From a virus: a stretch of 64,000 bases of DNA. The translations under genes were made by a program, and so were the position numbers. The stretch lies in the IMG/VR virus record IMGVR_UViG_3300042539_000280, positions 100,393 through 164,392 of that record, one strand, 5' to 3'. Within the stretch, counting starts at the first letter, position 1. Each line of letters starts with the position of its first letter. This document shows, piece by piece, positions 19,487-40,400 of this stretch. Under the pieces are notes generated by a model, which was given only the letters and a program-made list of their open reading frames with translations, did not search any database and was not told the DNA's origin.

Positions 19487-20515
19487 TCATAATTTACTCC
19501 ACTGGTTCATTCTCATAGTCGCTAATAATCCTTTGTATGTATTATTATCTATAATGTGTTGGATGGCAGCAGGTGAGGTACCCGCCAGGACCATTTCGTT
19601 GATATCTTTTTCTTTTATGGTATCAGGCCAAATGCAGACCTTGTATCCCATTTCGATTGTTTTCCGCATATTAGAAACAATCTGTTTGTTCCTAGGTTCA
19701 TTATCATATACAAAAACGTAGTTCTTGTCAAGACCTAAGATGCGAGGAGCACCGTATAATGCTGCATCCATAGTAGCCACGCAATTAGTAAGGAAAAGAG
19801 AATCGATGGGTCCCTCAACCACATACACAGTTTGCAATGCATCCAATCTATCCCAGCCAAAAATCTTAGGGTTAGTTTCATCGCCTTTGATTGTGATATA
19901 TTTGATCTTCGCATGTCTGTCAAGTGATCGCCCCTGGATGCCTAGAAGGTTACCGTCCTTGTCTTTGAACGGTATGATTATGCGTGGTTCCTTATATAGT
20001 GTTTTCTCATAGTGTGGGTAAAGGTTCTTGACAAACTCCGCAAAGTCTGCCGCAAACCACATATCTATAAGAGATACCTTACGATCCTCAAGATACTTTC
20101 TTGCATAGAACTCTGGTGGTAACGCCTTGATACGACCCGCACCAGCAGCAAACAAAGCATCAGAACTTGGTACATGAAATAAAGGTTTGAATACCGGTTT
20201 GGTTACAAAGTCCTGAACGTTTACACTATTTCTGGTATTGGATTGCACAAAGGCCTCCAATACATAGTCACGGTATAGCATTGGATCTTCATCTTTTAGG
20301 AACTTTTGGAACGTGGTAGACGAATGACAGTTGTGGCACATAAAGAAGAAGTTTTCTTTCTTCTTATAGATATAACCACGGGCCTTTGTCTTATCCTTGG
20401 AGGAATCTCCACAAACAGGACATCTAAAGTTCCATAAAAACTCTCCCCGCTGCTTGAACTGTTTTAGTCTAGGAGCGAGGAGAGAGATATACTTCTTATC
20501 GATATAAACGGACAT
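19487..20515 (-). CDS. gp61: DNA primase (T4 gp61-like)
   Basis: CPVCGDS...CHNC zinc finger, RIIIPF, VVEGPIDS, YDNEPRN TOPRIM. Confidence 0.93.
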   Translation of the reverse strand: MSVYIDKKYISLLAPRLKQFKQRGEFLWNFRCPVCGDSSKDKTKARGYIYKKKENFFFMCHNCHSSTTFQKFLKDEDPMLYRDYVLEAFVQSNTRNSVNVQDFVTKPVFKPLFHVPSSDALFAAGAGRIKALPPEFYARKYLEDRKVSLIDMWFAADFAEFVKNLYPHYEKTLYKEPRIIIPFKDKDGNLLGIQGRSLDRHAKIKYITIKGDETNPKIFGWDRLDALQTVYVVEGPIDSLFLTNCVATMDAALYGAPRILGLDKNYVFVYDNEPRNKQIVSNMRKTIEMGYKVCIWPDTIKEKDINEMVLAGTSPAAIQHIIDNNTYKGLLATMRMNQWSKL

Positions 20516-20573
20516 ATTCCACCTGACACATAATAAACAACACTATATCATTCACCTGACACTATGTCAAGTG

Positions 20574-20921
20574 TTATTTGTTCTTGAGTAGTGGTTTCAT
20601 CTGTTGGATAACTTCCTTGAGACTGTCAATTTCTTTTCTTAGATCCTGACGGTCGGTATCAACCACAGGAATACGAGTCTCAAGTTTGTTCTTGATGGTA
20701 TCCATAGTTTCTTCTATATGGTCTACCTTCTGTTCAAGGTAAATGACCCTCTGCTGGATTTCCATATCCTTTACTTTGAACTCACCAATGGTCATGAAGT
20801 AAGCAGCCACCAGACCGCCTACCGCCAGAATAGCAGTAATGACAGGTGGTAGTCTCGTTACGGCTTCACCAACTCCATGTTCAAAGTCGTTGGTGTTATT
20901 ATCGGACATTGATAGTTCCAT
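20574..20921 (-). CDS. single-TM coiled-coil protein, possible holin/lysis accessory
   Basis: one hydrophobic helix then coiled coil; directly downstream of the endolysin. Confidence 0.45.
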   Translation of the reverse strand: MELSMSDNNTNDFEHGVGEAVTRLPPVITAILAVGGLVAAYFMTIGEFKVKDMEIQQRVIYLEQKVDHIEETMDTIKNKLETRIPVVDTDRQDLRKEIDSLKEVIQQMKPLLKNK

Positions 20922-20935
20922 TCCTTTCTACCCCT

Positions 20936-21535
20936 TTAAGCAAAGTCTTTGGGGATAAACTGTGGACCTACTTGATCGAGGTCTACAGAAGCAACGCTGA
21001 CCGCTTTGATTGCTCTCTTTGCGTTCTCCAGCATTGCTATTCTCGAATTGAGACCATTGTAACCACCATTGATACGCTTGGTGATACCCCTAATATTATC
21101 CTTGTCGGCAAGCGCATTTAGTCCATTGTCTGTCCAATATTGCACGGCAATCTTTACACCAACCTCTGGGGTCTCTGCCAGTTCTGGTTTCTTTACTAGA
21201 TCGATACCTAGTTTCTTGCCATACTTTTCATAGTTGTAACGGCCTGTAATCTGAATAGGACCACGGCCTCTAAATCTTTTACCATCACCTGCTTTTACAT
21301 TACCAAGGTCACGGCGTCCTTCATATGCTGCACCAGAAGCATATTCTCGCATTGTTCTGAAATGATCGCTTTCGTGTGCTAATTGTGCGAGAAAGTGAGC
21401 AATTCTTAGTTTCGTTGTAATACCTGCCTTTTCCATTTCTTTAGGCAAGAACTTTGCTAGGCCTTCTGTAACCTCTTTGTTGACTGGAGCACCAGCAACT
21501 TTTCTTAGCAATTCTGGTGTTATGATTATGCTCAT
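20936..21535 (-). CDS. glycoside hydrolase family 19 endolysin
   Basis: FLAQLAHES, FRGRGPIQITGRYNY, TKRINGGYNG. Confidence 0.9.
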   Translation of the reverse strand: MSIIITPELLRKVAGAPVNKEVTEGLAKFLPKEMEKAGITTKLRIAHFLAQLAHESDHFRTMREYASGAAYEGRRDLGNVKAGDGKRFRGRGPIQITGRYNYEKYGKKLGIDLVKKPELAETPEVGVKIAVQYWTDNGLNALADKDNIRGITKRINGGYNGLNSRIAMLENAKRAIKAVSVASVDLDQVGPQFIPKDFA

Positions 21536-21537
21536 TA

Positions 21538-21945
21538 TTATCTCCTTTTGCCATATCTGGCATATGTCATTTCGCCTGTGTTCTTATTCTTTAGTATGAT
21601 TGGGCGACCTGGATTCTTGTTAGCATATTCTCTAATCTCTGCTAGACAATCATCCTCTTCCAGATACTTGCGCCATGTCTTGTGCTTACGCTTTTCCATC
21701 TTGGCAGTATGGAAAACAGATGGTGAAACCTCGAATACCATAGCACCAGCAAATGTATCTTCCGCTAGAACAGGTGCCTTACGACGGAAGTAACCCATAA
21801 TAACAGAGGTCGGTGGAGTTTTTTGTCTTTTCTGTATCTTTCTTTGGGTCTTTACAGATACACCAGACTCTCCATGACTGCCAACTCCAATGCCAGCAAT
21901 ACCACCTCCGCCTGCACTATTTGTCGGAGCATCTTCGTCAATCAT
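21538..21945 (-). CDS. T4-like conserved virion-associated protein (EDAPTNS family)
   Basis: MIDEDAPTNSAGGGGIAG N-terminus. Confidence 0.6.
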   Translation of the reverse strand: MIDEDAPTNSAGGGGIAGIGVGSHGESGVSVKTQRKIQKRQKTPPTSVIMGYFRRKAPVLAEDTFAGAMVFEVSPSVFHTAKMEKRKHKTWRKYLEEDDCLAEIREYANKNPGRPIILKNKNTGEMTYARYGKRR

Positions 21946-22337
21946 TGTAGGTTCCTTAGTCTATTGGCGATATCCAAATCAACCAGTATTTCTTCTTGTC
22001 TTATACTGTATTTATCAAACGAGACAGTCAATCTCTTAGGCATATAGTTCAAAAATATAAGAATTGTTTTGAGGAGGGGATAATCTTCTGGATCAACTTT
22101 GAAAAATAACATATTCACGGTTGCTTCTACACCAAAGACATTGGAGAGGATGATGACATGATTGAGCACCAACCTCTCCTTGAAGTCTCCAGTTTGTCTA
22201 TACTTACGCAATAACCTTTTCACATACTTTATACGCTTCAAGTCTTCCTCAAACTCTGACTGTATAATGTGCGGTTTGTCATAGGCCTTGGCGGCGTATA
22301 TCAAAAAGTTATCATCATTTAGATCACTAAACATCAC
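21942..22337 (-). CDS. T4-like conserved hypothetical protein
   Basis: NFLIYAAKAY, EFEEDLKRIKY.KRL, LNH.I.L.NVFG. Confidence 0.75.
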   Translation of the reverse strand: MMFSDLNDDNFLIYAAKAYDKPHIIQSEFEEDLKRIKYVKRLLRKYRQTGDFKERLVLNHVIILSNVFGVEATVNMLFFKVDPEDYPLLKTILIFLNYMPKRLTVSFDKYSIRQEEILVDLDIANRLRNLQ

Positions 22338-22344
22338 ACAAGTA

Positions 22345-24060
22345 TTAGACTTTCACATACTTTGAGGGATCAAACTTATCTTTGGAAATACGACGAACTT
22401 TACGTTCTGGATCGTTTTTACCTGTTACTTGAATGGTCTTAGAAGGACCTTCAACACCAAGACCGGCCTTCACCTGGGTAGAAACCTTACGTTTCATGAT
22501 ACGAAAAGCAGATGCCTTCTTGACAGAACCCATGGCTTCGTCCATTTGTTCTTTCTTCTTGGCCTTCCATGCGGTTGCAAAAGCAATAGACTTTTCCTTG
22601 GCGGTTAGACCGTCCTTGGAATAACCCTTCTTGATGTGTTTGACCATACGTTCAAACTTGGCACCTGGAGGTGCTTTTTCTTCTAGTCTATTCATAGCCA
22701 TTTGTATACCAGCGGCTCTTTTGTTAGCAGTCTTTCTTTCTTTTGGAGAAAGATCAGAAAGATATGGATCCTTTGCCTTACCAACTAATGTATCTAGTTG
22801 CTTACCAGCCTTCTTTTCATATCTTGCTACAGTTGATCGCTTTAGTTCATCAATCTGTTCATCTTCCATAAGACCCTTTGTATGAAAGTGTCTTTTCATA
22901 GCACGACGGATTTCACCTTTATGAACATCTCCACCCATATGCTTGGAGATAGCAGCGTCACGTTCACGAGTTGACTGACCGCCTACCTGTCCTGGCGCAG
23001 TCTTAAATGCTTTGATAATATCATCATAGCGTTTTTCTTTACTCTGCTTGATTTCATCAATCTGTTCTTTCTTTTCAAAAGATCCATGCTTTGAATACTC
23101 ATTGCTGTCCTTGCCATAACCATGACGACGAGCCATAGACTTTAGTTGTTCCTCTGATTTACCAGCGAACTTCTTAGCCTTTTCTTCTGGTGTCATGTTG
23201 GCAATACGCTGCTTATGCTTGATAACAGAAGCAGGCATACGACCTTCTTCAACAGTTTCTTCCATATAAGGATGCTTAGGAGCAGAGGCACCAACCTTTG
23301 CTTTACCTGTCATCTTCTTATGTGCTAGAGAGATACCCTTTTCACGGGTCTTTTCTCTACGGCCGGCGGCCTTGGCATCGTCAGAAGTGGCCGCAGGATA
23401 TTGACCTGGGTTCTTCTTGAAATGCTTGATATCACCTAGTTCCTGTTCAGCACCTTTACGATAACGAACAAGTTTACCTAATGATACCTCGTTTAGACCC
23501 TTTTCGGAATCCGCTACTGCTTCTTTGTTACCCTTCTTCTTTTCATCAGAGGTAACATCGTGCATTGGTTCCTTTTCAGCACTACGTTGGCTCATGGTTG
23601 CCTTGTCATCGGCACATTCTTTCATGGTGATTTCGGCCATGTCTAGCATCTTGTCTAGTTCGGCCTTATCAACAACCTTAGCCATGCATGAGAACATACC
23701 AAGCATACCTCTATAATCAAAGAATAGGTAATACTTTTCTGGTACTTCACGAATGAACTCACCGGAGTCATTCATGCCCATCTTCTCACCAAACTGTACC
23801 ATTTCATATACCTCAATACCCTTATGACCTTCAAGGAAGGTTTTCTTGGGTAGAATGATACTGAAATATGCCAACGCCTTTGACACCTTACGGAGAGTAA
23901 TGTAAGGGGTCACATGAGAGCGTGAACAAATGCCGGAGAGAATGGCATTGATCTGATCACGAACTGCCTCGTTACGAAGATCAAAATTGCCATCCTGAAC
24001 CATTGCGGTTGGAAGAACTTCCTCACTTATAAATTTTTGGAATGATTTCATGTTCATCAC
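22345..24060 (-). CDS. putative internal head polyprotein with capsid-targeting sequence
   Basis: N-terminal MKSFQKFISEE (T4 CTS-like); repeated EQIDE/EQMDE/GLNE/TVEE sites separating basic modules. Confidence 0.7.
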   Translation of the reverse strand: MMNMKSFQKFISEEVLPTAMVQDGNFDLRNEAVRDQINAILSGICSRSHVTPYITLRKVSKALAYFSIILPKKTFLEGHKGIEVYEMVQFGEKMGMNDSGEFIREVPEKYYLFFDYRGMLGMFSCMAKVVDKAELDKMLDMAEITMKECADDKATMSQRSAEKEPMHDVTSDEKKKGNKEAVADSEKGLNEVSLGKLVRYRKGAEQELGDIKHFKKNPGQYPAATSDDAKAAGRREKTREKGISLAHKKMTGKAKVGASAPKHPYMEETVEEGRMPASVIKHKQRIANMTPEEKAKKFAGKSEEQLKSMARRHGYGKDSNEYSKHGSFEKKEQIDEIKQSKEKRYDDIIKAFKTAPGQVGGQSTRERDAAISKHMGGDVHKGEIRRAMKRHFHTKGLMEDEQIDELKRSTVARYEKKAGKQLDTLVGKAKDPYLSDLSPKERKTANKRAAGIQMAMNRLEEKAPPGAKFERMVKHIKKGYSKDGLTAKEKSIAFATAWKAKKKEQMDEAMGSVKKASAFRIMKRKVSTQVKAGLGVEGPSKTIQVTGKNDPERKVRRISKDKFDPSKYVKV

Positions 24061-24066
24061 TCCTTA

Positions 24067-24687
24067 TTATACAACGTAAAGAATTGTTGCTGAACCGGAT
24101 GTTACGCTGTTTGCACCAGTTGCGGTTACTAGGGCACGGAATACGTTGCCGTTTGCGGTCTGGTTGTTTGCAGTAAATGTTGGTGATGTATTGTTGAAAT
24201 ACTGACCACCTGTGTTTGCAACATTGGCCCATGAAGAACCATTGTATTTCTGCCAGTAATACTTGATAGAAGCACCTGATGGTGTTGATGTAGCAGCAAC
24301 GGTGAAGGTTAGGTTACCAATTGTCGATTTTGTATTACTTGTTGGCTGTGTGGTAACTGTTAGACGATAATCTGGGAACTGTGTATCGTCTGTACCGTCA
24401 GTGGCGATTGAACCTGTAGCAACAAGAACTTCGTAGGTAATACGACCAGCACGGAGACCGGTGCCTTCCTTACGAAGAACCCAACCAGAGTGTGGAATGT
24501 CTTTGTTGACCTGTGCTTCATTTGTATCAACGGCGAACTGGCCAACGATTTCATTTGTGATGAAAGCATTAGCAGTTACGTTCTTATAAAGAGCAGACTG
24601 GTTAGCAGAGGTTGATGCTCTGTTATACTGGATTACGGCTGCAATGTCTGAATTGGCAGCATTGTCTTTATTACCCCATAGTGGCAT
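24067..24687 (-). CDS. virion structural protein with Ig-like C-terminal domain
   Basis: MPLWG start, H.GWV...GR...EVLVA; TQP...YYWQK...FRALVT Ig-like pattern. Confidence 0.7.
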   Translation of the reverse strand: MPLWGNKDNAANSDIAAVIQYNRASTSANQSALYKNVTANAFITNEIVGQFAVDTNEAQVNKDIPHSGWVLRKEGTGLRAGRITYEVLVATGSIATDGTDDTQFPDYRLTVTTQPTSNTKSTIGNLTFTVAATSTPSGASIKYYWQKYNGSSWANVANTGGQYFNNTSPTFTANNQTANGNVFRALVTATGANSVTSGSATILYVV

Positions 24688-24700
24688 TGTTCTTTTCCTT

Positions 24701-24874
24701 TTAGTTGTAAGTTTGACCTACTACGCCTGGGACCTCGGGATTCTGAACTACAGGATCCGCAGGTTGACCAGTCTGGGTCTTTCCTGGGTTTATTAGTTTT
24801 TTATCGGCGGCCTTTTGCAAGGCCACCTTTGTATCTTCCTTGGCAATCTTCTTGCTGTCGGGTTTCTTTTTCAT
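24701..24874 (-). CDS. small late protein (57 aa)
   Basis: MKKKPDSKKIAKED...GKTQTGQPADPVVQNP; TAATG coupling. Confidence 0.55.
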   Translation of the reverse strand: MKKKPDSKKIAKEDTKVALQKAADKKLINPGKTQTGQPADPVVQNPEVPGVVGQTYN

Positions 24875-26382
24875 TATACGATCCTATATTTATTATCACC
24901 CACTGAAACATAACTTTCAGCAACCATCTTCTTTTCTTCTTGCTGAGTACCACCAAACTTACCTCTGTTGGCCCATGCCTTGCCGGCAGGACTATCAGCA
25001 GAATAAGATGGTTCAGGTGCCGCAGTAACAGAAGCCTTCACCTCTGGTGCCGGAGCAGGTGCGGTTTCAGGTGGTTTATTCTGTGAAATAAACCCACCAG
25101 TGTCACTTGTGGCATTTTTAGGTTTAGCTGCTGATCCTGCAATATCCGGAACACCTGTTGGCACTCTTGTAGTGGTAGTAGGTGTTCTTTCTGGATTAAG
25201 TCTAACACTACTAAATGTGTCAGGTTTTTCCGCTGCCTTCATGCCAGTATCTTGTTGTTTGATAGGTGTTGGTGAAAGAGATCCAGAAGAAGTGCCAGCT
25301 GTAGTGAGGCCGGCGACTCTTGTTAGACCTTGTCTACCAGGACCATATGATGCTCGATCAGTCGAAACATTTTTTGGTGCTGTGTCTGCCTTAGTTGCAG
25401 AAGAAGCAGTAGCAGGTGTTGATGACTTACCAACACTTGTCACCTTTTGCTGTGACATAGGCACAAACTTTTCTTCTGGTGCCTTTGCAGTTCCTTTGCC
25501 TCGAATGTTTGACTGATATGTACCAGTTTCACCAGTTTTTGGATTTGTCCATTTGAATTGGCCAGTTGACTTAGCACCCATTGATCCTGCTTCCTTACGG
25601 GCCTGTGAGAAGGCCTGCTTGAAAGAAGATGGTTCTGTCTTTGGTGCTGCCGCTGGTTTAGCAACAGGAGCAGACATTGTACCAGGTTCTTTTGTCTGGA
25701 CAGGAGCAATCTTAGAAGGTAGTTCCTGATTCTTGACAGAAGGTGCTAGTTCTCCACGTCTTGACATAGAACCAACCATACCAGTTTGTGTGTTCTTGAC
25801 AGATGCACTTGGTGTAGTTGATGAACGATAACCTGCAACTTGTGTCTTGCCTGTATCTGTTTTACGGAATACAGGATTACCTGGTTCGGTCTTAGTGGAA
25901 TCTGGAACTGCAAGACCAGCAACACCAAGGGCACGACCTGCCACCTTTGCTGCTATACCTTTTGCAACAGAACTGGCGGCCGCCACAGTAGCCTTAGGTG
26001 TGGCCATAGCGGCACGGCCGGCGCCACTCATTTTGGTCACCATTTGACTTGGTGATGACTTTGCCATCTTCTGTGCTACTTGACTACCACCCTGTGAGAA
26101 TGATGTAGAACCACCAACTGAGGATGGTTTCATTGATCCAGTAGCTTGCTGACTAAAACTTGGGTTGAATCGGTTAGAGATATTTCTCTTTACGTCAGTT
26201 GTGGTTGGTTTCATTGTACCGAAACTGGAACCCATTCTAGCACCACCTGATTTTACAGTTGTGCCTTGTGACGCAAAACTCTGACCTGCACGATAAGTAT
26301 TACCCTGTAGTCTTTGCTGCGATGCGCTTGCCTGACGACGAACACCTGGAACAGGCATTTCGACGTTAGGTGGCATCGACAT
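24874..26382 (-). CDS. low-complexity Ser/Thr/Ala/Lys-rich protein; probable -1 frameshift extension of the upstream gene
   Basis: no RBS before ATG 26382; reading frame open back to the slippery site at 26430. Confidence 0.65.
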   Translation of the reverse strand: MSMPPNVEMPVPGVRRQASASQQRLQGNTYRAGQSFASQGTTVKSGGARMGSSFGTMKPTTTDVKRNISNRFNPSFSQQATGSMKPSSVGGSTSFSQGGSQVAQKMAKSSPSQMVTKMSGAGRAAMATPKATVAAASSVAKGIAAKVAGRALGVAGLAVPDSTKTEPGNPVFRKTDTGKTQVAGYRSSTTPSASVKNTQTGMVGSMSRRGELAPSVKNQELPSKIAPVQTKEPGTMSAPVAKPAAAPKTEPSSFKQAFSQARKEAGSMGAKSTGQFKWTNPKTGETGTYQSNIRGKGTAKAPEEKFVPMSQQKVTSVGKSSTPATASSATKADTAPKNVSTDRASYGPGRQGLTRVAGLTTAGTSSGSLSPTPIKQQDTGMKAAEKPDTFSSVRLNPERTPTTTTRVPTGVPDIAGSAAKPKNATSDTGGFISQNKPPETAPAPAPEVKASVTAAPEPSYSADSPAGKAWANRGKFGGTQQEEKKMVAESYVSVGDNKYRIV

Positions 26383-26420
26383 TGCTAGTTCGTTTACCGA
26401 CTTACCCGTTCCCGGTGCGC

Positions 26421-27569
26421 CTAGAAACCCTGGTCTTCCTTCATGTGCTTGGCACGGATCTTGGCAAGGATAGCACCTGCTACCTTCTTACCACGTTCCT
26501 CTGAACCATAACGTTCGCCGGCCTTCTTAGCAATCATCTTGAATGATTTGCCTGGCTTACCAATGTCTTTACCAGCACGGGCAGCCTTGGCAGAATATGC
26601 GGCTTCATTTACTGTTTCTTCTGGTAGATGACCTGGCTTGGTGTGTGAACCAAGACGACGCTTGATATTGCCTTTTAGTGTGGCAGTATCTTGCTTATGA
26701 ACCTTACCAGATTTTGTCATTCTGTCTGTTGGATGGCGACGATCACGGGCAATGGAATCTTCTTTACCACGATCTTCACCACGGCGAACTAGACCTACAG
26801 ATGATTGAGCGCCAGCACGTTCGGCATTATGTGCAGTCTTTTTACCAAACTTTCTCTTGATTAGACCATGTAGTTTGCTGGTGTCTCTTTCTTGTGCTTC
26901 TTTTTCTCTATAAGCAGAGATAGCAGCCTTCTTTGAAACTTCATCAATCTGTTCATCTTCCTTGACCACATTCTGCATACGTTGTGTGGTTGGATTGCCT
27001 GGTGTTAGTGAAGATGCTGCACCTGGATAGGACTTAGGTGTTGATGGATCTTCCTTAGGAGCAGACTTAGTAACGTCGCCTGAACCTTGAACTGATGGAT
27101 CTCTTTTTACAACGTCAAGGCCTTCGCCCATCTTTTTCTTGCCACCCATCTGGTCTTTACCGAGACGACCAGCAACAACGTCACCACGGGTAACTTTGTC
27201 ATATGGAGGATAGTTGTTAGCAAGATTACCATCATTGCCTTCTTTTGTTAGTTCACGAGCAGTTCTCTTTGGTGACTGACCTGGGAATCCGCCCATCTTT
27301 TTGATGTGTTCCATGCCAGTCTTTTCTTCATGCTCTTTCTTCTTTTCTTTATTCTCTTTATTACCTTCTTTCATGCACTTATAGGCTTCTTCTAGTCTGG
27401 CATCATATGCTGCTAGTTGCTCTCTAACAACTGCCTTGCGAGAATATACACCAAACTCCTCGTTGACAAGGGCCTCGGCTTCACGGCGCATGTCGCCATC
27501 TTTTCTTGCTTCCATGACCGCTTGAACTAGAGGGTCCTTCTTGGTTAGAAATGGGTTGTTTCCAAACAT
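26421..27569 (-). CDS. putative internal head polyprotein
   Basis: EQIDEV, ETVNEA, LTKEG sites; basic modules; CTAAATA late promoter at 27612-27618. Confidence 0.7.
   Translation of the reverse strand: MFGNNPFLTKKDPLVQAVMEARKDGDMRREAEALVNEEFGVYSRKAVVREQLAAYDARLEEAYKCMKEGNKENKEKKKEHEEKTGMEHIKKMGGFPGQSPKRTARELTKEGNDGNLANNYPPYDKVTRGDVVAGRLGKDQMGGKKKMGEGLDVVKRDPSVQGSGDVTKSAPKEDPSTPKSYPGAASSLTPGNPTTQRMQNVVKEDEQIDEVSKKAAISAYREKEAQERDTSKLHGLIKRKFGKKTAHNAERAGAQSSVGLVRRGEDRGKEDSIARDRRHPTDRMTKSGKVHKQDTATLKGNIKRRLGSHTKPGHLPEETVNEAAYSAKAARAGKDIGKPGKSFKMIAKKAGERYGSEERGKKVAGAILAKIRAKHMKEDQGF
26424..26430 (-). other. -1 ribosomal frameshift heptamer G GGT TTC directly before TAG
   Basis: X XXY YYZ in the correct phase; the -1 frame reads 16 sense codons into the ORF at 26382. 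Confidence 0.75.
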
Positions 27570-27610
27570 TTTAGTTTTCCTTGTAAGTTGAATTGGATAA
27601 TGTAATCCTA

Positions 27611-29632
27611 TTATTTAGTATATTTCTTTTTTCTTCTGGATCCAAATAATGATTTCTTTTCAAATTCTGCTGCTGTAGCATTTTGTCGAACATCATCATT
27701 TCCAGTGGTTGCAGGTACCGATGACATAGTTCCTGAGTATGGATCGTCTAAACTCTCCATTCTCACCAACTTTTCGGCAGTCTCTTTCATCTTTTGTTCT
27801 GAAAGAGAACCATAACGTGCCTTGAAACGCTTTTTGGTTTCTTCACTCTGCATCCAACGATCTAGTCTTTGTCTGCTAATCTGTCTATCAAGACCGGTTA
27901 AATCAATTGCTTGATTATCACCGAATCCAGGTCCTTTTGGAAGGCCTGCTTCATCGCCTATTCTGTCAGCACCAATAGGTGCCGCAGATGGGCTTCTTAC
28001 TGTTTTCTGTTTCAAATCTAATACTCTCATAGGTTTGGGTGGACCAGGTTCTTGACCTGGGGTGTCTTGTGCATATCTATCTGTTAGTTTCTGGGTTCCC
28101 CAGTTACCTGCACCACCAACCAAAACCTTTCTATTGTTTGGAGAGAAGTCAGTATATCCCTCCAACATAGCCTGGAATTTACGATCATTATCAGTTGTAA
28201 CAAATTCATCAATCTCGGATGTTACCGAGTCAATTAGTTTTTGGTATGTTTCCTGAATAACTTTTTCGGATTGGTTTAGGTCTAAGTCATTCTTGACTTC
28301 AATGACCTTTTCAAATAACTGGTCGTATTTGTTTAGTGCGTCTTGTGCAGACTTCCACTTACCAAAGCGGACATTCTCTGCAATGACACGGCCTTTTCCA
28401 GCACGAGCCTCGTTTCTTAGTTTTGATACCTCGTTGCTGGTATTGACAAATACCATAATAGTTTCATAACCTCTGGCATCAAGTGACTCCTTGATACCTC
28501 TTGCTTTATCATAATCGAATGAACCATTGATGACTACATTACCTTCTAATGTAATCTTATGAAATTCGTCAGCATTTACCTCTGTAAATCCACATGGTAG
28601 AATTGCCTCTTTTAGAATCTTATCTTTACCAGAACCTGGTGTTCCAGCAAGAATGATGGCCTTTTCGGTCACATACTGCATATCGAAATAACTTGGATTC
28701 AAACTACCAAAATAACGCATTACCTTACCGGCATCTGCGTTGGCCTCGTTTTCAATCTTAGAACCGGTGGCACCTTCTTTCTTGATATCTTTACCAAGAC
28801 GACCATCAAGGTTCTGCTTATGATGAACCAACTCATGTGCTACTGAACGGAAGATATCCATCGGATGACGGTTCTTAGTTGCAACTCTAACCAATTTTTC
28901 ACCAGGTGAATAAGAAGCAAATGATGGTTGATTTACTGGATTCTTATCTCCACTTTCATCTGATCCCATGTATTGAAATTTTGGTCTTTCATCGATACCA
29001 AGATGGGCACAAGTAAAGTCAACGAATGACATCAACTTGTCATGAAATTCTTTTCTTGTCATACCACTGGTATCTTCTTTTAGAAAGGCACGAGTGGCGG
29101 TGAATATCTTTCGTGCTAGGGTCTTATCTTTGGCGGCAGATGCCTTGGCAAATGTGGCAAAGTCACCCTTGCGAACGGCTGCACGAAGATCGGTACCAGA
29201 AATTCCCTTCTTACGGGCACCTGATGACACGACCTCAAAATGTTTGAATGGATAATGAATCTTTGGATTGAAATCTTTGGCGGTTCTTGGTTTTACATAC
29301 TTAGTAAGTGATGTTCTAAACTCTTGAACACGGTCGTCACCGACAACAAATGTAACATCTTCATAACCTTCATCTGCTAGTTTCTTAGCAATAGCAAATG
29401 CGGTTTTCATCTTTGGATCATCCACAAAATTTACACCAGGGAATATCTGACGAAGAAACGTCATTTTCTCTCGTGGTGAAAGTGGATTTTTGGACGGATC
29501 ATGTGATTGGGAGGTATAGATACGGTGTTCGGCACCTTTTCTCTGTGCTAACTTTACCGCATATGTAATTAGTTCTGCATGGCCTGTGGTTGGCGGATTA
29601 TAACGGCCAAATGTGAATACAATCTTTTTCAT
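27611..29632 (-). CDS. multidomain protein: cytidylyltransferase-like (HIGH) + HExxH metallopeptidase-like + P-loop kinase
   Basis: FTFGRYNPPTTGH, VVGDDR, ISGT.LR; AHELVHHKQ...E.EANA.AG; ILAGTPGSGK. Confidence 0.8.
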   Translation of the reverse strand: MKKIVFTFGRYNPPTTGHAELITYAVKLAQRKGAEHRIYTSQSHDPSKNPLSPREKMTFLRQIFPGVNFVDDPKMKTAFAIAKKLADEGYEDVTFVVGDDRVQEFRTSLTKYVKPRTAKDFNPKIHYPFKHFEVVSSGARKKGISGTDLRAAVRKGDFATFAKASAAKDKTLARKIFTATRAFLKEDTSGMTRKEFHDKLMSFVDFTCAHLGIDERPKFQYMGSDESGDKNPVNQPSFASYSPGEKLVRVATKNRHPMDIFRSVAHELVHHKQNLDGRLGKDIKKEGATGSKIENEANADAGKVMRYFGSLNPSYFDMQYVTEKAIILAGTPGSGKDKILKEAILPCGFTEVNADEFHKITLEGNVVINGSFDYDKARGIKESLDARGYETIMVFVNTSNEVSKLRNEARAGKGRVIAENVRFGKWKSAQDALNKYDQLFEKVIEVKNDLDLNQSEKVIQETYQKLIDSVTSEIDEFVTTDNDRKFQAMLEGYTDFSPNNRKVLVGGAGNWGTQKLTDRYAQDTPGQEPGPPKPMRVLDLKQKTVRSPSAAPIGADRIGDEAGLPKGPGFGDNQAIDLTGLDRQISRQRLDRWMQSEETKKRFKARYGSLSEQKMKETAEKLVRMESLDDPYSGTMSSVPATTGNDDVRQNATAAEFEKKSLFGSRRKKKYTK

Positions 29633-29806
29633 TCTTCTCCCTCTGCGGGTTTATATTAGTTATTTAGTTTTTGTTTTTTCCTTGACTGCTTTACAATCTT
29701 CTTGATTGTTGCAACAACAGGAACGGGTTTAGTCTCTGGATGTCCTGTTTCGCATCCACAGTGTTCTTTTATTTTCTTCATTACTCTTCCTAATATTAGA
29801 CTATTT

Positions 29807-30547
29807 TTATATTTTTATATTTGTGTTATAAACGTTCCTGTCATTTCCAAAGTCAGTCAACCAATTTACTCCGGTGAGTCCAGTTTCTCTAATATCTTTA
29901 CCTTTTTGTATGACGCCGATCAGATCACCAAAATTCGATACTAATGCATATCTTCTTTTTTGTCTATCTGGTGTAATATTTATAATATCAGCAAACAAAT
30001 ACATATTTTCTTCTTTTTCTTTTAGTATGACTTCACTATATAATTTTCCCAATAAAAACATTCCAGATATACAGGTCACATCGTGACCATAGTATTCTAC
30101 ACGACAATTATGAACAATGTTCTGAATTAATCTTTCTAAGATTACGGCACCAGGTTTTGCAATCATAAAATTATTTTGAACTACTAACCCTTGTGATTGC
30201 CAATCAAAATGGGCCCTAGGAGCACAGAAGTTGTATTTTTCAAAAAACTCCATATCAATGTCTGACATCATTTGGATATGTAAATCAACATATACACCTC
30301 CATACAAATATAAAAGACATGCTCGGGCTAAGTCACATTTGAAGGCATACGGATTCAATTTTTTATAGGAAAGATAAACTTCTTCTGAGAAATTATTAAG
30401 TAGTATATCTTCTATCTCTTTTCCGGAATATAAATGATAATCTCCTGGAATACATTCTCTAACACTGTCACAACATCTTTCAGTAATTTTAGGTAAAATT
30501 TTAGGAATATTATTATCATCATTTATCAAAATTTGGTGTATTTTCAT
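29807..30547 (-). CDS. glycosyltransferase GT32 (DxD sugar-binding)
   Basis: KIHQI, DLAR.CLLYLYGGVYVDL; AT-rich insert. Confidence 0.8.
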   Translation of the reverse strand: MKIHQILINDDNNIPKILPKITERCCDSVRECIPGDYHLYSGKEIEDILLNNFSEEVYLSYKKLNPYAFKCDLARACLLYLYGGVYVDLHIQMMSDIDMEFFEKYNFCAPRAHFDWQSQGLVVQNNFMIAKPGAVILERLIQNIVHNCRVEYYGHDVTCISGMFLLGKLYSEVILKEKEENMYLFADIINITPDRQKRRYALVSNFGDLIGVIQKGKDIRETGLTGVNWLTDFGNDRNVYNTNIKI

Positions 30548-31785
30548 TATTTACCCCAGTTTTTCACCGCCAAAAAGTTTGCACGACTAAATTCCATTCT
30601 GTCAACCAATTTGACTGCATCGCCACCTGTGGACCATGCTGCCACATATCCTTCTGGTGTGGTTACTTTATAACCACCGTCGGCAGTATGTAAGAATGTG
30701 CCAAGATCATTCACCTGATTGAACTTGTGAATGAGTAGCATCTTGGCCTCTACCAATATTCTCTGTAAATCAAAAATCATTTTGAGGTGAGAAGCATGTT
30801 GACGATACCAGCGGAGAATCATATCTCTTTCTTGGATTCGCTTTTGTTTGGTAGCAGGCATCTTAGCAGTTTCTATGTGCTTGGTATATTTATCACCAAC
30901 CCACTTTATAAGTTCTGCGGTATATCCTTTACCATATGACTGACCAGCACGGACTTTCTGGTTATTGAAAGTCATAATGTCAATACGGTATGTGGAATTG
31001 GAAGCAATCTCATTGAACATGCTGGCAGGGATGGACCTGAATAGTGAACCTGCTTGTGATAGTAATGAGGTAAGTTTAGCGTTTTCGGTCTTGGTTAGTG
31101 TAGCACGACCAGTAACATCGGAGAATTTGTTTGATCTAAACCAAACGTTTCTATTCTTTCTTAGACCACTGATATCAACATCAAAGTGTGTCTGTAATGT
31201 GTCCATAGTTTTACCATAATATGATGTATGAAACACAATACCCATCTGTGCAGCCATTACCTCTTTGGCCATAGCGGAGTCTACAGGTACGGCATATGTA
31301 ATGGTGTTTGGTCTGAAAGTAATATATCTCTTACCATCAATGGTCTCTGTCTTGAGGTCAGACTTAGAGAACATAAAGTCACCGTGAATGATGCCTTTGA
31401 TACCTAGTGCAGGGAGATATTTTAGTGCCTGCGATAGTTTATCAGCAAGACCGCCAGTATGATTGGCACGAATGTCGGCCTCGGTGTAATTCAGTTTGGA
31501 ATTTTTAGCAAATATAGATTTAGAACCAACAAAGAACTTACCATTTTCAGGATTGATACCAGCATATAGTGCCGGCGCACCATCGAACTTGGTTCTAAGG
31601 ATAAGTGCCTCGGATAACAGGTCATTCTCGTCCTTGATGGCAAACATATCTTTCAATGAGATTAGAAAGTTGATTGCGTTACGGGTGCCCGCTACACCAC
31701 CTTCCAATACGGCATCTTCAATGTGAGTAAGATGACGGTCTTTTTCGGCTGCTGCTTCTTTGAGATATTGGTTGAGTCGGATCAT
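30547..31785 (-). CDS. conserved T4-like protein with ligase-superfamily nucleotidyltransferase motifs (DUF6267-like)
   Basis: CTS-like MIRLNQYLKE; KFDGAP (motif I), HGDF, PEGYV (motif IV), VKLVDR (motif V). Confidence 0.65.
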   Translation of the reverse strand: MIRLNQYLKEAAAEKDRHLTHIEDAVLEGGVAGTRNAINFLISLKDMFAIKDENDLLSEALILRTKFDGAPALYAGINPENGKFFVGSKSIFAKNSKLNYTEADIRANHTGGLADKLSQALKYLPALGIKGIIHGDFMFSKSDLKTETIDGKRYITFRPNTITYAVPVDSAMAKEVMAAQMGIVFHTSYYGKTMDTLQTHFDVDISGLRKNRNVWFRSNKFSDVTGRATLTKTENAKLTSLLSQAGSLFRSIPASMFNEIASNSTYRIDIMTFNNQKVRAGQSYGKGYTAELIKWVGDKYTKHIETAKMPATKQKRIQERDMILRWYRQHASHLKMIFDLQRILVEAKMLLIHKFNQVNDLGTFLHTADGGYKVTTPEGYVAAWSTGGDAVKLVDRMEFSRANFLAVKNWGK

Positions 31786-33217: not shown

Positions 33218-33249
33218 AGGACCTCAATAAGAGTTTATTTCTCTTATAT

Positions 33250-34080
33250 TTAGTCGTAATTGGTAAGCAACAGTTCCAGACGTTTTGGTTGGTTCTTACG
33301 ATAGTTGGCCGAGTTTGACCGCATGGTATAGGTCAATGGAAAGTCATGCTGATTCCATTCTGGGAAACGATCTTTCACTGACTGGTCGGCATTATAAGAG
33401 ATTGCTATGTTAGCAAGTGTGGGCTTGCGACAATCAAGAGCAAATATCTCGTGACTGAATCCCTTGTGCATGTTACCCTTCTTACCATATAGATTTGAAC
33501 CAATCTCATATGGTGGATCAAGATAGATGAATGTATCGTCATCAGCACCTGACAATAGTTCCTCGTATGATACATTGGTGATCTTCCAATCTTTGATAAT
33601 CTTACCATACTCTTTTAGATCCTCGATGCCTTTCAGAGTAAAGTTACCATTAGAGGCCATCTTGGAGAATGACGAGGACTCGGTAAGACCGGAGAAAGAA
33701 CATTTATTGACAATCCAAAAGGCCTTTGCCTTTGCGAAAGGTGTTTCATCTGGATCATTTAGTATTTCTTTATTGACCTCAAATAGTATTCTGGCCTTAT
33801 CTTCGGTACTATTCTCCAGTTTGGCCTCTCTCAATTCATCCGACAACAGGGTGGGTACCTTTTGCAAATGATGCCAAAAGTTATAGAGAGGCCAGTATAG
33901 GTCATTGACCCATACGGTTTCTGGGTTATAGTTTTGAGTCATCCATAAGGCAACAGAACCGCCCCCGAGGAACGGTTCTCTATAATGCTTTACACTATCC
34001 GTTGGTGGAAAGTAAGGTGCCATTTTATTCATGGCCTTACTCTTACCACCAGGATATCTCAAAGGAGTCTTTAGTCTCAT
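33250..34080 (-). CDS. dam: Dam-like (D12 class) N6-adenine DNA methyltransferase
   Basis: LRYPGGKS, EPFLGGGS, YLDPPY. Confidence 0.9.
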   Translation of the reverse strand: MRLKTPLRYPGGKSKAMNKMAPYFPPTDSVKHYREPFLGGGSVALWMTQNYNPETVWVNDLYWPLYNFWHHLQKVPTLLSDELREAKLENSTEDKARILFEVNKEILNDPDETPFAKAKAFWIVNKCSFSGLTESSSFSKMASNGNFTLKGIEDLKEYGKIIKDWKITNVSYEELLSGADDDTFIYLDPPYEIGSNLYGKKGNMHKGFSHEIFALDCRKPTLANIAISYNADQSVKDRFPEWNQHDFPLTYTMRSNSANYRKNQPKRLELLLTNYD

Positions 34081-39749: not shown

Positions 39750-39929
39750 TTAGTACCTTTCTGTTATGCCTCCACGCACAATACTCCACAGTAAACGAAA
39801 GATTAATGAAATGTGGGATTGATTTAGACCGAAGTCTGACGAGGAGGAGTGGGTGCCGCTGCCATTACATCCGTGGTCAGCGGCGATTAACCACAAGGCA
39901 ATATGACTGCCTTGTGGAATAGTATTTAG
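39750..39929 (-). ncRNA. structured late leader or sRNA with three hairpins and a CUCCUCC tract
   Basis: CTAAATA, then CCACAAGGCA/TGCCTTGTGG, GCCGCTG/CAGCGGC and AGAC-TTCG-GTCT hairpins. Confidence 0.5.
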
Positions 39930-39938
39930 GCGCCGGCG

Positions 39939-40400
39939 TTATAAACTTGGAAATTTATCTGCCGCAATGGATGCCGCCCATGCAGATGGTTTTACCTTAG
40001 GCGTAACACCAGTCATGCCTTTGATATATCCCATCGCTTCATTGATTACACACGATGAACCATGCTTGAAGTCTGGATTGATATCAATATGAACTTCATA
40101 CTTTCTATCACCAATAGACTCGGCCAAGTCCAAATACATCTGTGCTGCCTTCATTACCTCATTCATAAGTCTCATACGAGGCTTATCACGAGACTGATCA
40201 TAGTCCCTTTCAGTAACAATCTCACCGAAAATCTTAGCACCACGGTTACCATCATAATGGACAACAACTACGGTTGCGTAGTCTGCCCACCATATACCGT
40301 GCCGCTTGTGTCTCTCCGAGTCAGCACCAATGTAAATGTGGGTGGACTCGGAGGTATTTTCGATAAAGTCTCTAACTTCATCCAAGTCCAACCTCTTCAT
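39939..40400 (-). CDS. RNase H-like YkuK/DUF458 protein
   Basis: IYIGADS, R...EV, EVHIDIN, AAS.AAD. Confidence 0.8.
   Translation of the reverse strand: MKRLDLDEVRDFIENTSESTHIYIGADSERHKRHGIWWADYATVVVVHYDGNRGAKIFGEIVTERDYDQSRDKPRMRLMNEVMKAAQMYLDLAESIGDRKYEVHIDINPDFKHGSSCVINEAMGYIKGMTGVTPKVKPSAWAASIAADKFPSL

Follow-up and report, generated by a model that had tools for sequence, protein, structure and literature searches.

Capsid-targeting-type leaders and conserved glutamate sites in modular proteins of an uncultured marine T4-like phage

The internal proteins of bacteriophage T4 are the textbook case of phage proteins that are injected together with the DNA to disarm host defences, and, to our knowledge, proteins of the T4 type have been studied almost only in coliphages. 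Here we describe a block of genes in the final 64 kb of a 164-kb viral contig (IMG/VR record IMGVR_UViG_3300042539_000280; this whole stretch of 64,000 nucleotides (nt) is referred to as the window), in which two proteins of 568 and 412 amino acids (aa) open with a leader resembling the T4 capsid-targeting sequence, and in which the 568-aa protein, a 673-aa enzyme chain and a frameshift-joined modular protein contain putative prohead-protease sites at the borders of their parts. The source is a T4-like marine myophage, uncultured; among cultured phages, the flagged genes are most closely related to those of Methylophilales phage Melnitz, Pelagibacter phage HTVC008M and cyanomyoviruses, all of them Kyanoviridae. 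Nearly all genes of the window lie on the minus strand, as do all the open reading frames (ORFs) and motifs named by a first-pass annotation of the sequence, each of which we found where it had been placed (Table 1).

Leader and basic modules of the 568-aa protein

The longest frame of the 568-aa gene (571 aa) opens at GTG 24060, which overlaps a Shine-Dalgarno sequence, and the first-pass annotation had taken this full extent as the gene. Since the Shine-Dalgarno AAGGAG lies 8 nt ahead of ATG 24051, and since the equivalent Met is the start in 111 of 120 homologs, we take ATG 24051 as the true start, yielding a protein of 568 aa. The T4-type leader claimed for this ORF and for the 412-aa ORF was borne out: both proteins match the leader pattern (Met1, aromatic residues at positions 4 and 7, Ile or Leu at 8 and Glu at 10), which is kept in 111/120 homologs of the longer protein, and a relaxed version of the pattern matches the 571-aa and 412-aa ORFs only in the whole 164-kb genome. 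The corresponding leaders in the T4 record are MKTYQEFIAE (internal proteins II and III, IPII and IPIII) and MKTFKEFTST (IPI). In T4 the first ten residues are enough for packaging, with residues 4 and 7 serving targeting and residues 8 and 10 processing (PMC9026906), and F4, F7, I8 and E10 of the 568-aa leader coincide with these positions. With 40 members of the family aligned, M1 and E10 never vary and F4 hardly ever does, while position 7 holds Phe, Tyr or His and position 8 holds Ile or Leu.

Behind the leader lies a conserved N-domain of ~180 residues that is common to the homologs of the 571-aa frame (the 571 family); comparison of its predicted model (predicted local distance difference test, pLDDT, 68) with the PDB gave nothing below E 0.05. 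The remainder of the chain consists of six modules, all of them basic (isoelectric point, pI, 9.4–10.7), and a Pfam search at E up to 1 assigned no family, enzymatic or other, to any of them.

To survey the leader more widely, we fetched 80 related loci using the 412-aa protein. The leader pattern opens 119 of 1270 ORFs in these loci, as compared to 3 of 6311 internal Met positions, and at least 11 unrelated groups can be told apart among the tagged proteins, including DUF6267 proteins, the 571 family, nucleotidyltransferase-kinase chains, a family with a DxDxT motif and several orphans. A leader of this type is present in 76/80 DUF6267 homologs, and some of these leaders are all but identical with the one in the 571 family. 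Six consecutive proteins of the syntenic block in Melnitz open with such leaders; one of the six, of 131 aa, is a homolog of the N-domain alone (a relationship visible by direct comparison only) and is encoded directly before the DUF7207 gene, as in the window. The natural 56-aa protein P0258 consists of the leader, then module F3 and nothing else: the leader cut site and the inter-module site coincide, and F3 begins at the same residue as within the polyproteins. Cyanophage S-RSM4 gene 060, which has the same gene neighbourhood, combines a leader-like start, a spacer and I-K-E with the same module, and a tblastn search of 50,697 phage records with the 571-aa protein detected nothing but F3, in cyanophages. 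By its distribution, the leader is a portable tag that is carried by many protein families.

Table 1. Positions of the genes, predicted protein parts and sequence motifs discussed in the text (window positions unless marked as genome positions)
Feature	Position	Strand	Remarks
568-aa leader-bearing polyprotein gene	22345..24051	-	leader, conserved N-domain, six basic modules
Capsid-targeting-type leader MKSFQKFISE, codons 1-10	24022..24051	-	resembles T4 leaders
Conserved N-domain and acidic spacer, ends GLNE	23488..24021	-	always N-terminal in family
Basic module B (family F8), 81 aa, pI 9.8, ends ETVEE	23245..23487	-	
Basic module C (family F5), 64 aa, pI 9.7, ends EQIDE	23053..23244	-	
Basic module D (family F19), 69 aa, pI 9.4, ends EQIDE	22846..23052	-	
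Basic module E, ~52 aa, pI ~10, ends RLEE	22690..22845	-	
Basic module F (family F3, starts KAPPGAK), ends EQMDE	22537..22689	-	also in P0258 and S-RSM4 gene 060
C-terminal basic module G (family F7), 63 aa, pI 10.7	22348..22536	-	always last where present
412-aa DUF6267 protein gene, leader MIRLNQYLKE (codons 31756-31785)	30547..31785	-	invariant K-x-D-G
673-aa enzyme chain gene	27611..29632	-	CTP_transf_like and Zeta_toxin matches plus HExxH domain
HIGH-type nucleotidyltransferase domain	29075-29632	-	
HExxH domain	28664-29074	-	
Zeta-toxin-like P-loop kinase domain	28124-28663	-	
Basic tail of the 673-aa chain	27614-28123	-	
382-aa ORF, front half of modular basic protein	26421..27569	-	modules after EQIDE and ETVNE
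Conserved ~37-residue N-terminus of the 382-aa ORF	27459-27569	-	ends V-N-E in 20/21 homologs
Putative recoding site G GGT TTC TAG	26421..26430	-	open -1 frame running into the 502-aa ORF
Small two-part stem-loop right after the slip site	26399..26421	-	one covarying pair in four phages (C-G, A-U, U-A)
502-aa ORF, back half of predicted frameshift product	24874..26382	-	Ser/Thr/Pro/Ala-rich
135-aa basic protein	21538..21945	-	begins M-I-D-E, then APTN and a Gly-rich stretch
CTAAATA, candidate late promoter	27612..27618	-	42 nt before 382-aa gene
CTAAATA, candidate late promoter	29661..29667	-	28 nt before 673-aa gene
CTAAATA, candidate late promoter	33247..33253	-	29 nt before 476-aa gene
Capsid protein gene	genome 36725-38116		

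Glutamate sites at module borders

More than 985 metagenomic homologs of the 571-aa protein were found, with highly variable length and coverage; they consist of leader and N-domain followed by pieces that fall into more than 40 recurrent fixed-length families plus many singletons. (Single-linkage clustering of the pieces with loose thresholds merged everything, and was redone with the linkers trimmed.) In an exhaustive search the N-domain was found in 381 clusters at 50% identity, nearly always at the N-terminus. Module shuffling, for which the first-pass annotation had proposed a test, is extensive: 121 proteins display 114 different architectures.

We located module borders without reference to the cut motif. 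The end-points of high-scoring segment pairs proved too diffuse for this because the linkers resemble each other, and start signatures were used in their place: to avoid circularity, modules were recognised by their own conserved first residues (eleven signatures), and the residues upstream were read only afterwards. The first-pass annotation had let its reading hang on the conservation of x-E sites at module borders in homologs, and conserved they are: [ILVM]-x-E stands directly before the module start in 266/266 signature-recognised cases, whatever lies upstream, and before all 30 module starts (30/30) in a further set, more divergent and drawn from the exhaustive search. All 429 junctions have Glu at P1 and Ile, Leu, Met or Val at P3, with P2 variable. 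The separators listed for the window sequence itself are all present (GLNE/V, EETVEE/G, EQIDE/I, EQIDE/L, RLEE/K and EQMDE/A in the 571-aa ORF, EQIDE/V and ETVNE/A in the 382-aa ORF, and FLKE/D, YVTE/K and MLE/G in the 673-aa ORF); the one exception is LTKE/G, which is non-canonical in having Thr at P3. Within modules, internal [ILVM]-x-E triplets number 240 as compared to 274 expected, a weak effect obtained with a biased null model, which we do not use as evidence.

Could the border motif reflect something other than proteolysis? The 132 junctions for which DNA sequence is available contain 112 different 18-mers; as the junction codons are this diverse, the constraint acts on the protein, and a DNA-level linker serving as recombination signal was rejected as the sole cause. 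Alternatively, these might be multi-domain proteins that stay uncut and bind DNA or have a structural role. The acidic E-E-Q-I-D-E stretches would then link the basic helices flexibly or cap them, and conservation of the N-terminus would have another cause. The shortness of the motif and its position within a longer acidic linker pattern, with Glu at most P6 and P5 positions, would both be compatible with such proteins. However, P3 and P1 alone are fixed while P2 and P4–P8 vary widely, and the site also occurs as L-Y-E, V-K-E or L-Q-E after non-acidic stretches. One rule, moreover, holds at the leader, at the maturation site of the capsid protein and at the borders of enzyme domains, and a 56-aa protein made of leader plus module is hard to account for as a linker. 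On balance we regard uncleaved linkers as improbable.

The protease that such sites would call for is encoded by the phage. The first-pass annotation had looked to a gp21 homolog elsewhere in the genome, and one is present at genome positions 39759-40244 (PF03420, Peptidase_S77, 125 bits), flanked by genes for an acidic scaffold protein, the capsid protein, the portal and the terminase. T4 gp21, whose cutting is blocked when the P1 Glu is replaced by Asp, aligns well with this protease. The N-terminal region of the capsid protein ends L-N-E/A, in alignment with the T4 gp23 cut site L-T-E/A, and the known gp21 cut rule is L/I-x-E (PMC9026906).

Enzyme chains, a frameshift-joined protein and neighbouring genes

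The start of the 412-aa gene abuts the stop of the 476-aa gene, and the two genes are translationally linked. (The 476-aa protein was considered as cargo; it is not homologous to the leader-bearing 361-aa protein at the same position in Melnitz, and hence is not counted.) Residues K66, D68 and G69 of the DUF6267 protein form K-x-D-G, motif I of the ATP-dependent RNA/DNA ligase superfamily, and are invariant in 24 sequences. We found no sequence match in the PDB; Foldseek with the predicted model (pLDDT 65) placed T4 Rnl1 and archaeal DNA ligases at E 0.35–0.5 only, Foldseek combined with VIA-align returned chance-level or helical-bundle rows only, and hhalign of the DUF6267 profile against T4 Rnl2 was negative. 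A protein atlas gave a weak RNA_ligase lead (0.76). A ligase is thus possible as a motif-level lead. In many relatives (e.g. L021:1590-2204 and L022:6073-6687) the DUF6267 gene is followed by one for a leader-bearing protein of ~204 aa with the motif F-D-I-D-D-T, a place taken in the window by a glycosyltransferase gene (29807-30547). These DxDxT proteins have no Pfam match, HAD included. Viewed as a set, the DUF6267 and DxDxT proteins and the P-loop kinase are reminiscent of T4 Pnkp plus ligase, which act in repair.

The domains of the 673-aa chain had been described as bounded by x-E sites, and the sites are conserved: each of the three domain borders holds [ILV]-x-E with variable P2 in 13/13 close homologs. 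One relative carries a HicA_toxin domain (PF07927, 35 bits) as an insertion flanked by two [ILV]-x-E sites (L020:4411-4608), with another at the same place in L019. One domain of the chain contains a HExxH motif, conserved across the 673 family together with a downstream Glu, and it is conceivable that this domain, rather than the prohead protease, processes the chains; self-processing has been proposed for polyvalent proteins by Iyer et al. 2017 (PMC5512222). Several points speak against this: a Pfam search of the domain at E up to 1 gave no match, peptidase families included, 571-family polyproteins are found in many contigs, and the site rule is that of gp21 and of the phage’s own capsid protein. 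Self-processing therefore seems to us very improbable. In cyanophage S-PM2 (L084 3998-5773) the DUF6267 protein and the nucleotidyltransferase are fused in a 591-aa protein that has no leader and whose gene follows those for DNA polymerase, UvsX, gp41 and MazG. From this fusion we infer that the two enzymes work together and that capsid targeting belongs to the non-cyanophage branch.

The 382-aa ORF had been read as a polyprotein of its own. It is indeed modular and contains the sites, and module F16 is common to it and the 571 family, but it does not stand as a separate protein of the internal-protein type: its N-terminus is different, and may be a second kind of propeptide, and the ORF is the front half of a longer product. 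The 382- and 502-aa ORFs are best described as a single predicted protein of ~896 aa joined by a conserved, putative -1 frameshift. T TTC TAG is kept in five contigs (the window, L006, L013, L021 and L022), while in relatives L010, L014 and L016 both parts lie in one frame; the linker read in the -1 frame is homologous to the in-frame linker of L010 and L014 and ends in a V-N-E site. The 502-aa part has a net charge of +37, only one [ILVM]-x-E and a conserved YRIV at its end.

The claim of capsid-targeted polyproteins does not extend to the whole block. Neither the leader nor the site pattern is present in the glycosyltransferase (246 aa), in the DUF7207 protein or in a 206-aa protein that is homologous to a ‘structural protein’ of cyanophages. 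The start of the 135-aa protein resembles the capsid protein cut site and the new N-terminus behind it (L-N-E, then AAPTNAGGG); its relatives have longer N-terminal extensions with [ILV]-x-E at the same point. CTAAATA had been put forward as a late-promoter motif. Its 11 occurrences in the window equal chance; genome-wide, it occurs 30 times on the coding strand as compared to twice on the other, and in 13 of these 30 cases an ORF starts no more than 60 nt downstream (~7% expected). The genes behind it include those for the protease, the scaffold and the 476-, 673- and 382-aa proteins; none stands directly before the 568-aa gene.

The block at 19487-24060 of the window is syntenic across Kyanoviridae (S-RSM4, L086; Melnitz, L003; HTVC008M, L087), in the order nucleotidyltransferase, small basic proteins, ‘structural protein’, leader-bearing protein, DUF7207, and onward to primase. 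The 568-aa gene stands two genes ahead of a lysozyme-like one, and T4 ipIII and ipII likewise adjoin the lysozyme gene e (e-ipIII-ipII). Outside the window, between the portal and protease genes (genome 40299-44230) and thus at the position of T4 gp67/gp68, three genes encode basic proteins of 614, 264 and 263 aa. These share modules with the block (a Cys-Trp...Asn-Cys-Val module and DUF6321) as well as ETQINE-type sites, and one of them starts with MKTLKQIREE.

A proposed route into the capsid and its known counterparts

We consider it likely that the 568- and 412-aa proteins are targeted to the capsid and cleaved there, as a polyprotein and combinatorial version of the T4 internal proteins. 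Both would be made late, and the ten-residue leader, working like the T4 capsid-targeting sequence, would draw them into the scaffold core of the prohead. The gp21-type serine protease of the phage would then cut after the Glu of [ILVM]-x-E, removing the leader and splitting the 568-aa chain into the conserved N-domain and six basic peptides of about 50–80 residues. In the manner of the T4 internal proteins, the released peptides would remain in the head together with the DNA and pass into the host along with it. A common plan, with the same sites at the borders, underlies the 382/502 protein and the 673-aa chain, and these probably meet the same fate, although our confidence here is lower, and it is lower still for any function of the released parts. 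Packaging, cleavage, retention, injection and a DNA-coating or counter-defence role are all inferred from sequence.

Several observations weigh against this proposal. [ILVM]-x-E is short and only mildly enriched overall (as compared to shuffled sequences, z is 1.5 for the 571-aa ORF, 2.7 for the 382-aa ORF and 2.4 for the 673-aa ORF); its density is insufficient for the claim, which is carried by the position of the motif at module starts, where the unbroken counts go far beyond chance. Several such triplets lie inside the N-domain, and not all of them can be cut if this domain is a folded product. While the first-pass annotation had grouped the 673-aa chain with the capsid-targeted proteins, it has no leader in this phage and its close relatives, a leader being found on chains of this family only in distant relatives and Melnitz; nor does the 382/502 protein open with a leader of the internal-protein type here. 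As the S-PM2 fusion is leaderless and encoded among replication genes, the enzymes need not be virion cargo. Furthermore, the literature searched contains no virion proteomics for this clade, and the fragments may leave the head instead of staying in it, leaving being the fate of most T4 scaffold fragments.

The last point bears on the strongest competing explanation, namely that these are accessory proteins of the core or scaffold: targeted and cut in the same way, but with fragments that build or size the prohead and are then expelled, rather than acting as injected effectors. Proteins with the same modules are encoded between the portal and protease genes, in the place of T4 gp67/gp68, many cuts per chain are typical of T4 core proteins (PMC9026906), and the modules belong to no Pfam family. 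On the other hand, the modules are strongly basic, like the DNA-bound internal proteins of T4 and unlike acidic scaffold; enzymes under the same leader, and HicA as a module in a relative’s enzyme chain, have no scaffold role; and shuffling this extreme suits conflict proteins better than assembly parts. We therefore hold a core or scaffold role to be rather unlikely, less so than uncleaved linkers.

Beyond delivery of the 568- and 412-aa proteins, we tentatively suggest, as a possibility that we do not favour outright, that abundant marine T4-like phages (the Melnitz/pelagiphage-like branch of Kyanoviridae and uncultured relatives) have a combinatorial cargo system. Leader and sites would let any small protein or enzyme join as a bead, be loaded, released and injected; the cargo pool, made up of more than 40 recurrent module families and including a possible nucleic-acid repair set (ligase-like, DxDxT, P-loop kinase) and even a HicA toxin domain, would serve counter-defence in the first minute, and the frameshift would set the ratio of short to long cargo. 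If the proposal is true, a large group of ocean phages uses the T4 targeting and cleavage machinery in polyprotein form, as a cheap way of shuffling and delivering numerous small proteins and enzymes; marine phage proteins now listed as ‘hypothetical’ could, in their hundreds, be assigned to the capsid interior and given predicted mature ends; and the chains would represent a natural multi-cargo design of interest for protein delivery with T4. Virion mass spectrometry on the cultured relative Melnitz offers a direct test of these predictions. In the literature searched, we found no link of capsid targeting sequences to cyanophages or marine T4-like phages.

Of the known systems, several resemble the one proposed here in part. 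The T4 core proteins gp22, gp67, gp68 and Alt likewise contain several L/I-x-E sites for gp21, and module-sharing proteins of the present phage occupy the gp67/gp68 position; unlike the modules described here, however, T4 core proteins are acidic or neutral, neither modular nor shuffled, and their fragments mostly leave the head. The inner-body and ejection proteins of phiKZ, 201phi2-1 and SPN3US (PMC5694885, PMC7411985) are cut after Glu by a gp21-related protease, and, as proposed here, comprise many head-internal proteins and paralogs with conserved N-terminal propeptides. They differ in their motif (S/A/G-x-E), in propeptides of more than 100 residues and in yielding one mature product per precursor, without chains of the bead-on-a-string kind.

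Polyvalent proteins (Iyer et al. 2017, PMC5512222) carry several effector domains on one polypeptide that is delivered with the DNA, a description that the 673-aa chain, if carried by the virion, would fit with its nucleotidyltransferase, HExxH and Zeta-like kinase domains and with HicA in relatives; the paper mentions neither cyanophages nor HicA. While release by an embedded metallopeptidase and MuF-type anchoring were proposed for polyvalent proteins, here the prohead protease, cutting at short sites, would free the parts, and a T4-type leader would bring them in.

The closest counterparts are the T4 internal proteins IPI, IPII and IPIII with their capsid targeting sequence (Mullaney and Black 1996; reviewed in PMC9026906 and PMC3012670). 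The likeness extends to the ten-residue leader pattern, the protease family, the predicted (L/I)-x-E cut rule, the basic nature of the predicted mature products, the hypervariable gene content and the location of the genes near an endolysin gene, but not to the mature parts, which have no sequence similarity to the T4 proteins. In T4, one leader heads one product, whereas in the present family up to a dozen modules, with further putative cut sites between them, can follow a single leader; the order of modules is reshuffled between phages, and enzymes of 400 aa carry the leader as well. As compared to internal proteins of the T4 type, what appears to be new is the polyprotein, combinatorial form.

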